Part shown: in pieces, positions 52,152 through 56,138 of the stretch
Layout: each line of letters opens with the position of its first letter
How positions within the stretch are numbered: the first letter of the stretch is position 1
Source of the DNA: Candidatus Kaiserbacteria bacterium
Lineage (GTDB): Bacteria > Patescibacteriota > Minisyncoccia > Phycocordibacterales > UBA918
DNA: 63,726 nucleotides
Assembly (NCBI GenBank): GCA_020428905.1
Contig: JAGQLY010000002.1
Span: 1 to 63,726, forward strand
Direction of reading: 5' to 3'
The notes under the pieces: model-generated
Told to the model about the DNA's origin: nothing
Databases searched by the model: none
Seen by the model: only the letters and a program-made list of their open reading frames with translations
Position numbers and translations under genes: made by a program

Positions 52152-52186
52152 AAAAAAAGCCCCGAGGCTCGTGAAAGCGCTCGGGG
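52152..52186 (-). terminator. Rho-independent terminator after the SPFH gene
   Basis: On the minus strand: CCCCGAG, 13-nt loop, CTCGGGG, then CTTTTTTT. Confidence 0.7.
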
Positions 52187-52211: not shown

Positions 52212-53480
52212 TTACTGCTGGACAGATGCACCCTTCTTAACGGTCATGTCGAGACCGAGGTCAGAAAGCGTCTTGGCCGTCAGCAGGTTGATGAGGTTGG
52301 CAGCTTCGTTGCCACCGGCCGCACCATCGCTGGAGCCTTGAGCCATCTGAACTTCGGGTACCCATTTCTGCTTACCGAACTCTGCGGCGAAGCGACCCAT
52401 AACGGTCACATACGCGTCGAGTTTCTGTTGCAGGGCACCGTCCGCTTCGAGCACCAGTCGCTTGTACTCGCCATCACCTTCACCACGCAGGACTTGCTCC
52501 TGCTTGTATTCGGCAGCGGCCAGCTTCTTCTGCTCGGCTTCGAGTTTCTGCTGTTCGGCGACGCCGACGAGCTGCTGTGCTGCGATGATAGCGACTTCCT
52601 TCTCCTTCTGGGCATCAACGACGGCCTTCTCCTTCTCGACTTCCTTTTCGTACTTGGCGGTCATAACGTTCGCCTTACCCTTTTCCTCAGCAGTGATCGC
52701 TTCCTGCTTGGCTTGCTCGGCCTCGGCTTTCGCCGTGATGATGGCCATGGTCGCCTTACGCTTGGTTGCGATCTGTTCGAGGGTCTTGGGTTCAAAGTCC
52801 CAGTCGGTGATCTGGAAGCCTACCAGCTTGATGCCGTAGGTATTGAGGTCACTCGGATAAGACTTCGGCAAGCCATCCTCGCCATAGTCGATAACGGGAA
52901 TGCTCTTCAGTACCCGTTTGCCCGTTCCTTCTTCTTCCTGGTAGACCTCGCTGAGCTTGGTCATGAACTTGCCGCCGGAGATCTGTTGGTGCGCCCAATC
53001 AATGAACGTACCACGCTTGACCGCGTAGGCATCTTCAGAAGTCACCAGACCAGCGGTGAGGTTCATTGCCTCTTCTACCACCGACTTGATCAGTTTCTGC
53101 GCGACGCCGTTATTGGAACGGAAGTCCTTGTGCAGCTTGATCATGGTTACTTCATCACCAGGAAGGGCAAAACGCGCCTTTCCGTAAATGGTACCGGTAC
53201 CACCGTCCTGGTAACGAACCGGGATGCCCATCTGGTCGATGGTGGCATCTTCGGATTCAGCCTTGTCGAAGTCGAAAGTAACGACATCGACGTACTCAGT
53301 TGGTGTACCAAACCATTGCGGGTATACACCCGGACTGAACTTCGTGACCAGGGTACCACTCGGATACTGTACCATCGTCCGATGACCGGCGTCGTTGATA
53401 CCCATGAGCATGGGTACAGAAAACAAAATGGCGACAATGACGACGCCGATGACGATCAGTTTTGCGGGAATACGTAGCAT
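52212..53480 (-). CDS. SPFH/band-7 (flotillin/HflC-like) membrane protein with long coiled-coil tail
   Basis: 422 aa. N-terminal TM helix (LIVIGVVIVAILFSVPMLMG), an SPFH-like core (TMVQYPSGTLVTKFSPGVY ... IPVRYQDGGTGTIYGKARFALP), and a tail of A/E/K/Q heptad-like repeats (AKAEAEQAKQEAITAEEKGK ... LEAEQKKLAAAEYKQEQ). Confidence 0.75.
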   Translation of the reverse strand: MLRIPAKLIVIGVVIVAILFSVPMLMGINDAGHRTMVQYPSGTLVTKFSPGVYPQWFGTPTEYVDVVTFDFDKAESEDATIDQMGIPVRYQDGGTGTIYGKARFALPGDEVTMIKLHKDFRSNNGVAQKLIKSVVEEAMNLTAGLVTSEDAYAVKRGTFIDWAHQQISGGKFMTKLSEVYQEEEGTGKRVLKSIPVIDYGEDGLPKSYPSDLNTYGIKLVGFQITDWDFEPKTLEQIATKRKATMAIITAKAEAEQAKQEAITAEEKGKANVMTAKYEKEVEKEKAVVDAQKEKEVAIIAAQQLVGVAEQQKLEAEQKKLAAAEYKQEQVLRGEGDGEYKRLVLEADGALQQKLDAYVTVMGRFAAEFGKQKWVPEVQMAQGSSDGAAGGNEAANLINLLTAKTLSDLGLDMTVKKGASVQQ

Positions 53481-53483
53481 GGT

Positions 53484-53714
53484 TTATTGCTCCTCATCAG
53501 GGTTGTTGATTGCGTCGATGTCTTCACGACGACGACGCTGGTCTGCTCGTTGGAGAGCGATGTCCTCGTCCATTTCCAGCAGATCACCTTCGACCTCTGT
53601 CATGGAAAGTTCCTCTTCCTTCCGTACACGAGCGCGCCATTTGCGCCACTCGCTCACGAAATAGGCGATGAGGATGACCAGAACGATTCCGATCAGTAAC
53701 CTTGTAAGTGACAT
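53484..53714 (-). CDS. Small single-pass membrane protein with highly charged tail (SPFH operon)
   Basis: 76 aa. LLIGIVLVILIAYFV, then RKWRARVRKEEELSMTEVEGDLLEMDEDIALQRADQRRRREDID. The stop lies 3 nt from the SPFH ATG. Confidence 0.55.
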   Translation of the reverse strand: MSLTRLLIGIVLVILIAYFVSEWRKWRARVRKEEELSMTEVEGDLLEMDEDIALQRADQRRRREDIDAINNPDEEQ

Positions 53715-53747
53715 TGTTTTGTCTACCTCTCAGTCTGTTGTGTGGAG

Positions 53748-54005
53748 TCACAGAAGCGCGACATCCACGGCCTTTTGGACAGGATGCCCGTCTTTTCGGA
53801 AAGAACCGAGCAAAAACTCAACCTCAAGCCCCTTGGCAAGTTGAATACCTCCGTGAACGGAAGCAACTTCAAACTTTCGCCAGTGAAGCTCGTTGGTTTC
53901 GTCGTTGACTCTAACTTTCCAAACCATATCATCGCCAACTGAATCACAGCCGACAACGAAGCCTTTCAGTCTTACGTTTTCAATCGTAATTCCTCCTCTA
54001 ATCAA
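53748..54005 (-). CDS. Small soluble hypothetical protein (first gene of the SPFH operon); start codon uncertain
   Basis: The ORF track opens at TTG. An AGGAGGA Shine-Dalgarno lies inside codons 3-5, which suggests initiation a few codons downstream (ATT, codon 8) or at Met27. No family recognised. Confidence 0.45.
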   Translation of the reverse strand: MIRGGITIENVRLKGFVVGCDSVGDDMVWKVRVNDETNELHWRKFEVASVHGGIQLAKGLEVEFLLGSFRKDGHPVQKAVDVALL

Positions 54006-54055
54006 TGTTAAGGTTCAAAAAAACGGCATGAAATTGCCATTTCTTACTAAAAATT

Positions 54056-54083
54056 AGTATAGCATATTCGGATACTTTGTCAA
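54056..54083 (-). promoter_or_regulatory. Near-consensus sigma70 promoter of the SPFH operon
   Basis: On the minus strand: TTGACA (54083-54078), 16-nt spacer, TGC-TATACT (-10 at 54061-54056). It sits 13 nt inside the IS3 left end. Confidence 0.55.
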
Positions 54084-54145
54084 GCTGCAAAAAACTGACG
54101 AGTACCCCAAAAATTGCACACCCGTTCTAAGTTCATTTCATGGTA

Positions 54146-54925
54146 CTAGACAGCGTGCTTTTGTGCAAACTGTCTCGGTGCCATCCTGAGTGCGGTGTGA
54201 ATACGTTCGGTGTTGTAGTAGTAAATCGCCTCATGGAGTGCTGCCACCAACTCACCGAGCGTCTCGTATCGTCCGGGGTCGCCAAACTCCACTTTAAGCT
54301 TGCCATAGAAACTCTCTTGGAATCCGTTCTACCACGGACACCCTGGTGCCGACATGGAGAGCTGTGCACCTACGAAGTGTACGCACGCACTGTAGTCTGC
54401 CGACGTATACTCACTGCCTTGGTCTGAGTGAATAATTCGTGGTGGTGGGTGAGAGTGGATTGCGTGACACCATGCGTTTAGTACTAACTGGGTGCTGTGA
54501 TTCGTGAGCACTGACCAGCCAACAATCTCTCTCGTGAAGAGATCGAGTATAGTGGCAAGGTATACCCATCGCCCTTGATGCTTCACGATGTGGGTAAAAT
54601 CACTCGCCCATATATCACCTGGGCCCTGCGGTGTCTCGGTGAGGAGTAGGTTTGGGAATATGCTGTCTTTAACCCGTTTTTCATACTTCTTTGCTCTTCT
54701 CCGATACGGCTTGATGCCAAACTTCTTCATGACACGGAGGACTCGCTTTTTGTTGATGCCAAGATGAAGCGCGATCCGTTTGTGACCATAGCCTGGGTGC
54801 TCGCGTAACGCTTTCTCAATGAGTTGCTTCGTGTACCAATCTTTTTCGTCTTGGACGTGGGTGTAGTACAGAAGACGACGGCTCACCCCGAGTTCTCGGG
54901 CAAGCGCACTCTTGTTGTCCATCAC
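54146..54925 (-). pseudogene. IS3-family transposase orfB (DDE/rve core) interrupted by an in-frame TAG
   Basis: DIWASDFTHI...LATILDLFTREIVGW...IIHSDQGSEYTS...GCPW, then TAG (54329-54331). The same frame continues NGFQESFYGKLKVEFGDPGRYETLGELVAALHEAIYYYNTERIHTALRMAPRQFAQKHAV, ending at the stop 54146-54148. Confidence 0.8.
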
Positions 54926-55185
54926 GAGCCCCTTTTTTGCTCTTCCGAGAGCTTGAGGGTGATGTCACCAATGAGTTGTTTTAGGGCGGCGTTCTCCTTC
55001 TTAAGCTTGTTGTGCTCAAGGATACTCACGGTACCCTGTGCTTTCGCCCCAAGCCATGAGTAGACGGTCTTTGGGTTTACCCCGTGTTCAGTAGCTGCAT
55101 CTTGCACACTGACGCCATTGTTTTTAATACGAGCAATGATTTGCTCTTTCACCTCGGGAGAGGTGCGGTACATCTTCTTTCCCAT
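54922..55185 (-). CDS. IS3-family transposase orfA (HTH)
   Basis: 87 aa. RTSPEVKEQIIARIKNNGVSVQDAATEHGVNPKTVYSWL plus a leucine-zipper-like tail. An A6G run (54932-54938, minus strand) lies at the orfA/orfB overlap, with orfB in the -1 frame. Confidence 0.85.
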   Translation of the reverse strand: MGKKMYRTSPEVKEQIIARIKNNGVSVQDAATEHGVNPKTVYSWLGAKAQGTVSILEHNKLKKENAALKQLIGDITLKLSEEQKRGS

Positions 55186-55250
55186 ATGTCTTGAGTATAT
55201 TACGGACTGTTAATACTCAGAATGGTTGTACAAAAATGGGGTACCTTTCA

Positions 55251-55857
55251 GAGTGTAATCGAGTCTATACACCATATACAAAGAAAGGCATTCAATACTT
55301 TAGCTCACGGTGTGTAACTGGATGTGGTAACGCTAAAAAAAGCTGCAATCTTTCTTATATTGAAACTGAGCTAGGCAAACTTATGCCTGAGTTATTCCTT
55401 GAACCACATGAACTTGAAGAATTGGACCAAAAAGCCGATACCGGCATTGCTCACTTAGAAGCTAAGCTCAATAAAGAGAAGGACCAGTCTGACCGGAAGC
55501 AACGGAAGCTCAATGAGGATCTGTCATATTTACGAGAAAACAGACTCGATCTTTTAAAATCTGGTGTGTACTCACCGAGTAGCTATATAGAAGAAGAGCA
55601 ACATTTGATAGCTGAACTAACTGAAATCAAAGAGTCAGAAGTTATTTCTCAGGAAGCGTTACACCAAACTATCAAAGAGGCGATGAAACTTTCCGAACTC
55701 TTAAATAACCTTACGGTGTAGTACGAAGAAGCCAACTCCGAAGAAAGAGAAGAAATTATGCGTTGTATTTTTTCCGAACTCAATATGAGTGACAAAACCT
55801 TTACGTACAGCCTTAAAAATGAATTTAGGGCAATGAAAAAGGATTCCGTCTTGTCTA
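55251..55857 (+). pseudogene. Large serine recombinase, C-terminal remnant (zinc-ribbon/coiled-coil part only), truncated by the IS3 end and frameshifted near its 3' end
   Basis: From the IS boundary: ECNRVYTPYTKKGIQYFSSRCVTGCGNAKKSCNLSYIETELGKL...coiled coil...EALHQTIKEAMKLSELL. The reading continues in another frame after 55721 (EEANSEEREEIMRCIFSELNMSDKTFTYSLKNEF). No resolvase catalytic domain is present. Confidence 0.6.
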
Positions 55858-55858
55858 G

Positions 55859-55930
55859 TGCTCCCACCAGGAATCGAACCTGGATCGCAGGTACCGCAAA
55901 CCTGCATTCTATCCATTAAACTATGGGAGC
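55859..55930 (-). tRNA. tRNA-Arg (anticodon GCG), CCA not encoded
   Basis: Manual cloverleaf: acceptor GCUCCCA/UGGGAGC, D arm GUUU-AAUGGAUA-GAAU, anticodon arm CAGGU-UUGCGGU-ACCUG, T arm CCAGG-UUCGAUU-CCUGG, discriminator A. Confidence 0.8.
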
Positions 55931-56089: not shown

Positions 56090-56119
56090 CCTGCATTCTA
56101 TCCATTAAACTATGGGAGC
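56090..56119 (-). repeat. Exact 30-nt copy of the tRNA-Arg(GCG) 5' half (tRNA positions 1-30)
   Basis: 56090-56119 is identical to 55901-55930 (CCTGCATTCTATCCATTAAACTATGGGAGC on the + strand). A perfect 9-bp hairpin lies next to it (56065-56073 pairing with 56079-56087). Confidence 0.9.
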
Positions 56120-56138
56120 AAGCACTCCACAGGATACC

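Follow-up and report, generated by a model that had tools for sequence, protein, structure and literature searches.

What do two small proteins contribute when they are encoded directly in front of an SPFH gene, where a partner protein such as NfeD might be looked for? Proteins of the SPFH superfamily (stomatin, prohibitin, and flotillin, as well as HflK/C) are universal membrane organizers whose partners largely define their roles, and we know of few bacterial SPFH partners beyond NfeD and FtsH. The question is raised by a locus of a Candidatus Kaiserbacteria bacterium, which we analyzed within a stretch of 63,726 nucleotides (nt) (GenBank assembly GCA_020428905.1, contig JAGQLY010000002.1, positions 1 to 63,726; hereafter the window). 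Here, the genes for a small soluble protein (p85), a small membrane protein (p76), and an SPFH protein of 422 residues form one intact transcription unit that extends from a promoter to a terminator (54083 to 52152). A prior sequence-only reading of this DNA had described a near-consensus promoter followed by three open reading frames (ORFs), and we find both on the minus strand, with sizes and spacing as claimed. The promoter scores at 11 of 12 positions and carries an upstream TG in a pattern scan; the ORF coordinates place the SPFH start 3 nt behind the p76 stop, with the Shine–Dalgarno sequence of the SPFH gene (GAGGAG) embedded in the final p76 codons. The evidence set out below leans modestly toward a composite operon in which two independently evolving modules meet, p76 plus SPFH on the one hand and a promoter/hairpin/p85 head on the other.

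A divergent SPFH protein and its small membrane partner

The third gene product is recognized by Pfam Band_7 (PF01145) at 45.4 bits against a cutoff of 23.6 (E = 1.2e-11; residues 31–261), which bears out its earlier assignment as an SPFH protein, and it matches phrog_11908 over its full length (E = 9.8e-89; residues 12–411 to positions 11–426 of the 430-position profile). No NCBIfam model is matched by the SPFH protein, nor did NCBIfam return anything meaningful for the operon, and a PDB sequence search returned nothing even at E ≤ 1. An AlphaFold2 model derived from 31 homologues places a transmembrane (TM) helix at residues 6–25, the SPFH domain at residues 26–229, and long helices at residues 234–329 and 338–368. 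Foldseek searches with this model retrieve HflK/C, erlin, prohibitin, flotillin, stomatin, and QmcA–YbbJ (E = 4e-9 to 1e-5), and also major vault protein. The modeled N-terminal anchor, α/β SPFH domain, and long coiled coil, together with the likeness to cage-forming members, are those of the SPFH superfamily. In sequence, the protein shows no detectable similarity to flotillin/YqiK (SPFH2), for which neither an NCBIfam nor a PDB sequence match was obtained, and its similarity to a YqiK-like protein encoded on contig L072 is limited to the low-complexity coiled coil.

More than 1000 SPFH homologues at 60 to 80% identity are found across phyla, chiefly, among those recovered, in metagenome-assembled genomes (MAGs) of Gammaproteobacteria. 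Related loci are also present in Bacteroidota and Patescibacteria MAGs and on three IMG/VR contigs, and T5-like vibriophages carry homologues as well (42% identity in Vibrio phage pVp-1). The family tree is discordant with taxonomy; the window SPFH protein clusters with candidate phyla radiation (CPR) contigs L060, L022, and L061 and with two Thiotrichales-binned contigs. An all-against-all comparison of neighboring ORFs in 61 loci revealed no conserved neighbor of the SPFH gene besides the small upstream gene. A tree that ignores taxonomy and the lack of conserved neighbors indicate that the p76–SPFH unit is self-contained and horizontally mobile. Three further observations concern this family. 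Near-identical SPFH genes occur in MAGs of different phyla or families (L014 and L015, L020 and L052, L013 and L025), for example in Cryomorphaceae and Gammaproteobacteria MAGs; either the genes moved very recently or the contigs were mis-binned. The "Thiotrichales" contigs L001 and L002 are nested within the CPR clade. The Patescibacteria homologue P0015 (L061:4687–5973) lacks the N-terminal TM helix, has no p76 upstream, and may be a decaying copy.

p76 had been described as a single-pass protein with a highly charged tail, and this description stands: one N-terminal TM helix (residues 6–22) precedes a helical tail in which 52% of the residues are charged. A gene that encodes a p76-like protein of 65 to 86 residues lies against the SPFH start, or overlaps it, in 28 of the 61 related loci, which derive from Gammaproteobacteria, Bacteroidota, and Patescibacteria MAGs and from viral contigs. 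The p76 family alignment covers 24 loci and the profile count was taken over all 61; L042 was left out of the presence call because a contig end cuts the locus. Since the profile was built from the same sequences that it detects, gene position provides the independent evidence. The family shares a common layout, M-x-R-L followed by a TM helix, a basic stretch, and an acidic/basic helix with the motif E-L...E-G-D-L-x-D-I-x-x-E-I-A-E-E-K. The closest SPFH relative (L060, 80%) retains a 71-residue p76 orthologue at a different genomic site, after rpsI, and lacks p85, and in Vibrio phage pVp-1 a 52-residue protein with a TM helix and charged tail is encoded 1 nt upstream of the SPFH homologue. Of the two small ORFs, p76 is conserved with the SPFH gene in other genomes, whereas p85 joins this SPFH gene only in the window's lineage. 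Shortened p76 genes that encode only a TM helix and a short polar tail are present in Cellvibrionaceae (L007:5738–5977; L018:5796–5936, 46 residues) and may represent a stage in p76 loss.

The distribution of Lys and Arg residues beside the TM helices is shared by nearly all members of both families. SPFH proteins carry two to four such residues on the N-terminal side versus one on the C-terminal side, and p76 proteins carry zero to one on the N-terminal side versus four to eight on the C-terminal side. By the positive-inside rule, the SPFH body would face outward, as in HflK/C, and p76 would be oriented N-out with its tail in the cytoplasm.

Conservation and gene position support p76 as a conserved partner of the window's SPFH family. 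We read p76 and SPFH as a widespread, previously undescribed, old, and horizontally mobile pair that is also found in lytic phages. No published account of a pairing between an SPFH protein and a tiny membrane protein was found in the literature searched; according to the 2009 classification, the minor SPFH subfamilies lack recognizable partners (PMC2636767). The locus points to a large SPFH family whose usual partner would be a single-pass protein of ≈75 residues that is missed or left unnamed by annotation pipelines.

p85 heads a cassette with interchangeable cargo

The p85 ORF is called inconsistently by gene callers in identical DNA, as 85 residues, as 59 residues, or not at all. Close homologues comprise nine sequences at 65 to 83% identity and one, on L092, at 89%. 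Substitutions among six homologues number 159, 113, and 375 at codon positions 1, 2, and 3, respectively, a bias that shows p85 to be translated in its frame; a noncoding reading of the region was rejected on the same ground. A scan of positions 53600–54200 against Rfam at E ≤ 10 gave chance-level matches only, and the conserved p85 region is therefore not a known RNA.

The first protein had been put at 85 residues or shorter. The gene is real, but its most likely length is 78 residues, from an ATT codon at 53984–53982. Residues ahead of the first ATG are conserved and show synonymous changes, and in relative L072 an in-frame TAA eliminates any upstream canonical start. The ATT codon lies 7 nt past an AGGAGG (53997–53992) and is conserved in six of six homologues, and the N termini of the wider p85 family align to it. 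The L072 stop codon, the conserved ATT, and the family N termini together lead us to read p85 from 53984 to 53748. Across five cassettes, approximately 30 nt at this start show almost no variation in their DNA, a pattern suggestive of an element for translational control. A mini-ORF (TTGAAAACGTAA; three codons, TTG AAA ACG TAA, in the +1 frame) overlaps the p85 start; within window positions 53974–53997 (minus strand), the AGGAGG serves both the ATT codon and this equally conserved mini-ORF.

The AlphaFold2 model of p85 is all-β (mean predicted local distance difference test score, pLDDT, 80.8), and its best Foldseek matches in PDB and BFVD are SSB-, RPA-, cold-shock-, and LEF-3-type OB folds; p85 is thus predicted to adopt an OB-like fold. 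It harbors no hydrophobic segment and would reside in the cytoplasm. A p85 profile searched against PDB sequences returned noise only, and tblastn of p85 against phage sequences gave no match. When the best-conserved 19-mer of p85 was used for an exact-pattern scan, 0 viral contigs and 26 metagenome contigs matched, and of the latter only L092 was a true homologue.

What is retained from contig to contig is a cassette made up of a promoter, a leader hairpin with a U-run, the p85 gene, and a spacer of 32 to 34 nt. Promoters equivalent to that of the window align in the cassettes of L072, L075, L076, and L092. The hairpin (−12.8 kcal/mol by RNAfold) is terminator- or attenuator-like, with compensatory double changes in four of the eight stem pairs across five cassettes and a U-run behind it in four of these five. 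In an alignment of seven cassettes, DNA similarity ceases at the start codon of the cargo. Five different cargoes are found behind p85 copies that are 65 to 89% identical. These are p76 plus SPFH-422 in the window; a YqiK-like, flotillin-type protein of 461 residues in L072 and L092; a 659-residue protein that passes Pfam Band_7 in L068–71 and L077–79; a 115-residue TM/coiled-coil protein with a 188-residue lipoprotein in L075 (1031–1947); and a 144-residue lipoprotein that matches Phage_VG64 in L076 (1517–1951), the last two on contigs that end shortly after the listed cargo, so that further cargo is possible. A cargo with an SPFH fold is present in six of eight distinct loci, and these cargoes are of three kinds with no sequence relation to one another. 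On balance, we cautiously favor a description of promoter, hairpin, and p85 as a CPR-specific cassette head that is joined by recombination to varying cargoes, exactly at the start codon of each.

A full hidden Markov model search revealed 114 more distant p85 clusters. All carry the domain at the N terminus, either by itself, fused to soluble C-terminal domains, or before a TM helix and an outside domain of ≈270 residues. In some of the fusions P0178, P0186, P0199, P0205, and P0224, the p85 domain forms the cytoplasmic N terminus of a single-pass protein whose outside domain is conserved; other fusions carry an ≈80-residue Cys/His-rich domain or a soluble domain of ≈110 residues. P0178 and P0205 gave no significant match when scanned against Pfam, and none of the tested p85-family members reached a Pfam gathering score, with sub-threshold matches only (DUF6510, NfeD, and others). 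Two distant members on long contigs head operons of Mpa/ARC-like AAA ATPases. The presence of a family that has no Pfam model in both AAA-ATPase and SPFH operons narrows its possible role to that of a cassette regulator or a shared adaptor.

Several features of these distant loci are recorded here. The distant p85 genes at L108:5001–7809, L109:5001–7186, and L110:7200–7589 head operons of a coiled-coil/OB/AAA ATPase that is similar to Mpa/ARC. Two further products of these operons are a DUF1360 membrane protein and a protein of 56 to 62 residues that has a Pup-like helix (DLLSEIDDLLEQ) and ends in C-x-C; neither a Pup ligase nor a proteasome gene was called within the 10-kb loci L108, L109, and L110. 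The L109 operon adjoins a restriction-modification cluster. P0248 (L109:5001–5297) and P0155, p85-family proteins encoded ahead of the Mpa-like ATPase, carry a C-terminal extension ending ...KRSGGQS that is reminiscent of the GGQ end of Pup and is absent from window p85.

Relation to NfeD and alternative explanations

Three traits define NfeD proteins, namely about three TM helices, an OB barrel at the C terminus, and linkage in an operon with SPFH genes (PMC2636767, PMC4208085). It had been suggested that this partner role may be split over two small ORFs in the window, or that these are unrelated accessory proteins; on the split reading, p85 would be a diverged NfeD C-terminal OB domain and p76 its anchor, and the two would jointly rebuild an SPFH–NfeD partnership. 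The positional part of this proposal stands, as an SPFH-adjacent, cotranscribed gene is found here and in six of the eight close p85 loci, where the position typical of NfeD, directly upstream of a YqiK-like flotillin or of two other SPFH-fold genes, is taken by p85 homologues; the predicted small OB-type β-barrel of p85 and the partnership of p76 with SPFH also agree with it. The homology part does not stand. Window p85 has no match to Pfam NfeD (PF01957) at E ≤ 1, and although NfeD is matched by more p85 relatives than any other Pfam family, this amounts to 2 of 30, all below the cutoff (best E = 0.01). Comparison of the p85 profile with E. coli YbbJ and YqiJ in hhalign gave probabilities below 1%, a weak test as the templates are single sequences, and NfeD proteins are themselves very divergent (YuaF and PH0471 share 21% identity; PMC2636767). 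No NfeD structure is among the top 50 Foldseek matches of p85, which are dominated by SSB, RPA, and cold-shock folds. Neither small ORF unites about three TM helices and an OB barrel on one polypeptide, and p76 has a single TM helix and no β domain. Furthermore, p76 and p85 occur together only in the window's lineage, the flotillin-type and 659-residue cargoes lack a p76-like gene, p85 relatives also head Mpa-like AAA operons that have no SPFH gene, and the predicted topology places p85 apart from the SPFH body. We find a split NfeD unlikely for these reasons, and the missing Pfam, hhalign, and Foldseek support, the restricted co-occurrence, and the non-SPFH cargo keep us from filing the pair as NfeD. 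A functional analogy of p85 and p76 to NfeD would be improbable as well. Nor is the operon an ordinary stomatin/NfeD pair. No NfeD gene accompanies the p76–SPFH pair.

That p85 is a nucleic-acid-binding autoregulator (an attenuator, antiterminator, or repressor) of whatever cargo follows, with no physical role at the SPFH complex, deserves more weight than a split NfeD, although we still judge it rather doubtful. The folds most like that of p85 are OB proteins that bind single-stranded DNA or RNA (Rim1, RPA, cold-shock domains, the phage SSB-like DUF669, and LEF-3), yet p85 harbors no recognizable DNA- or RNA-binding motif, and window p85 is mildly acidic (isoelectric point 5.9), although the family median is 8.2. 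p85 invariably comes first, as a gene or as an N-terminal domain; its start is a conserved noncanonical ATT; and a hairpin with compensatory changes and a U-run lies between promoter and start, although such a leader hairpin could merely stabilize the mRNA. In layout, p85 domains fused to a TM helix and an outside domain recall one-component regulators that are tethered to the membrane. The cargo is interchangeable, but rather than random it is strongly biased to SPFH and AAA machines, which suggests a functional rather than a purely regulatory tie of p85.

The sequence-only reading had also raised, as speculation, the possibility of a membrane-acting stress or defence module, and the results lend no support to the defence idea. 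In its broader form, this explanation holds that the operon is a membrane module of phage origin or with anti-phage activity, through superinfection exclusion or abortive infection, and that it arrived as the cargo of a serine-recombinase island that targets tRNA genes. In favor of it, the SPFH proteins make up a PHROG (phrog_11908) with members in T5-like vibriophages and on IMG/VR contigs; the operon has an IS3 element and a recombinase remnant with tRNA-Arg on one side and rpsT on the other; and other p85 cassettes contain phage-type lipoproteins such as Phage_VG64 or adjoin restriction-modification or toxin-antitoxin genes. PADLOC-DB v2, however, has no match for p85 or the SPFH protein and only a chance-level match for p76 (E = 0.035); no toxin-like domain was found in the operon and no island-end repeats around it; and in the 61 loci, the genes around the pair are unrelated housekeeping genes, among which neither defence nor prophage neighbors are conserved and defence functions are not enriched. 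We consider such a module very unlikely.

A composite operon that joins a p76–SPFH pair to a p85 cassette head thus remains the reading that we prefer, and several findings weigh against parts of it. The OB assignment of p85 comes from weak Foldseek scores (E ≈ 0.01–0.1, TM-score ≈ 0.45–0.65), and the SPFH model is of moderate confidence (pLDDT 66). About half of the SPFH-family loci have no p76, including all 17 of the Methylococcales clade; p76 is also absent from the Thiotrichales contigs L001 and L002 and from the Kangiellaceae MAG loci L006, L008, and L019. Its presence requires at least six state changes on the SPFH tree, and these changes and the p76-less clades make p76 a frequent yet dispensable partner. 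The small protein of pVp-1 is equivalent by position and architecture only; the p76 profile fails to detect it. Outside the window's lineage, no SPFH-422 locus has p85, so that its link to SPFH-422 could be a recent recombination accident. Finally, the membrane would separate the SPFH body from p85 under the predicted topology, an arrangement that speaks against their touching directly.

A working model for the operon

In the model that we propose, the SPFH protein presumably oligomerizes into a membrane-attached cage like those of HflK/C, prohibitin, or flotillin, with its body facing outward, as in HflK/C. Translationally coupled p76 would probably place its TM helix in or at the membrane patch bounded by this cage and point its charged helix into the cytoplasm, and p76 would replace the usual NfeD partner in the window's SPFH family. 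Cytoplasmic p85 would most likely act either as a dedicated regulator of cassette expression through the conserved leader or as a soluble adaptor at the cytoplasmic face of ring or cage machines. The analysis itself shows the reality and architecture of the genes, their co-occurrence and mobility, and the modeled folds, whereas cage formation, contact between p76 and SPFH, the topology, and the functions of p76 and p85 are what we infer.

An extended form of this model seems to us a long way from probable. The p85 family would be an undescribed, CPR-centered class of small OB-fold proteins that act as a common plug-in cofactor or switch for mobile cassettes of large ring and cage machines, both the three kinds of SPFH scaffold and Mpa/ARC-like unfoldases. 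If so, p85 would couple the cytoplasmic tail of p76 or the N-terminal domains of the ATPases to a shared quality-control or signaling step, one adaptor system would serve SPFH cages and AAA unfoldases in bacteria with tiny genomes, and the p76–SPFH pair would relay across the membrane, from a cage on the outer side to a tail on the inner side or the reverse.

Genomic setting of the operon

DNA identical to the locus is found on several activated-sludge and wastewater metagenome contigs. The operon is flanked by rpsT and by an IS3 element and a recombinase remnant with tRNA-Arg, and the neighboring genes encode RuvX, tRNA_bind, S20, Fur, ZIP, and a large CARDB-type surface protein. This neighborhood and the named relatives indicate a Patescibacteria (CPR) genome, and the identical contigs indicate activated sludge as its habitat. 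The IS3 element (Pfam HTH_Tnp_1 and rve) terminates 13 nt upstream of the −35 box; it is a degenerate copy (orfA and a broken orfB; window 54096–55930) that lies between the operon promoter and the remnant. This remnant, the C-terminal part of a serine recombinase, reaches tRNA-Arg(GCG), and a 31-nt exact copy of the 5′ half of the tRNA-Arg is present at 56090–56120. The description of the site as a mobile-element-scarred islet is accurate on these grounds, and delivery of the operon by a mobile element is plausible; boundary repeats around the operon were looked for and none was found. Three short RNA contigs from one wastewater metatranscriptome are 90 to 95% identical to the SPFH gene, a level of identity which indicates that a relative of this gene is expressed rather than this operon itself. 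Coordinates of the operon features are collected in Table 1.

Table 1. Features of the p85–p76–SPFH operon, in window positions
Feature	Positions	Strand	Description
Sigma-70-type promoter	54056..54083	−	TTGACA (54083–54078), 16-nt spacer, TATACT (54061–54056), extended TG
Leader hairpin (AAATGGCA...TGCCGTTT), then U-run	54017..54044	−	Between promoter and p85 ribosome-binding site
p85 gene, 78 residues from ATT	53748..53984	−	Predicted OB-like β-barrel protein; maximal ORF 54005–53748, 85 residues
p85-to-cargo spacer (CACACAACAGAC plus GAGG Shine–Dalgarno)	53715..53747	−	DNA alignment of seven cassettes
p76 gene, 76 residues, bitopic protein	53484..53714	−	ORF list; profile matches beside SPFH genes
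SPFH/Band-7 gene, 422 residues, divergent cage-type, phrog_11908 family	52212..53480	−	
Intrinsic terminator (CCCCGAG...CTCGGGG stem plus T7)	52152..52186	−	Closes the operon

Comparison with known systems

In structure, the model of the window SPFH protein comes closest to HflK/HflC of E. coli, which forms a cage (PDB 7VHQ/7WI3; Foldseek E = 4e-9). Both begin with a TM anchor at the N terminus and continue with an SPFH domain and a long coiled-coil wall, and the window protein is predicted to have the same outward (periplasmic-type) orientation. In contrast to the hflK–hflC paralogue pair, however, the window contains a single SPFH gene, which has no NCBIfam HflK/C match, no PDB sequence match, and no linkage to ftsH, and whose candidate partner is a bitopic protein of 76 residues.

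SPFH–NfeD operons (QmcA–YbbJ, PDB 8Z5G; YqiK–YqiJ; FloT–YuaF; PH1511–PH1510) likewise place one or more cotranscribed small accessory genes upstream of the SPFH gene, and the inventory of the window accessories, a predicted OB-type barrel and a TM helix, is that of NfeD (PMC2636767, PMC4208085). The window differs in that these features are divided between two polypeptides with one TM helix versus about three, in that no sequence relation to NfeD is detectable, and in that its OB protein is not specific to SPFH operons. A further parallel is the B. subtilis pspA–ydjGHI (samGHI) operon, a stress-related operon in which small non-NfeD membrane proteins encoded upstream are reported to recruit or partner an SPFH protein (PMC13713150, PMC8581546). 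SamI is cytosolic, whereas the window SPFH protein has its own TM anchor, and no pspA is present at the window operon.

A last comparison is with phrog_11908, an uncharacterized family of phage SPFH proteins that the window protein matches over its full length and that includes gp97 of Vibrio phage pVp-1 (42% identity). The window copy differs in being chromosomal in a CPR bacterium and in having p85 in front, and the small protein of the phage is shorter (52 residues). The two loci share a gene for a small protein with a TM helix and a charged tail placed immediately upstream of the SPFH gene, at a distance of 1 nt in the phage.

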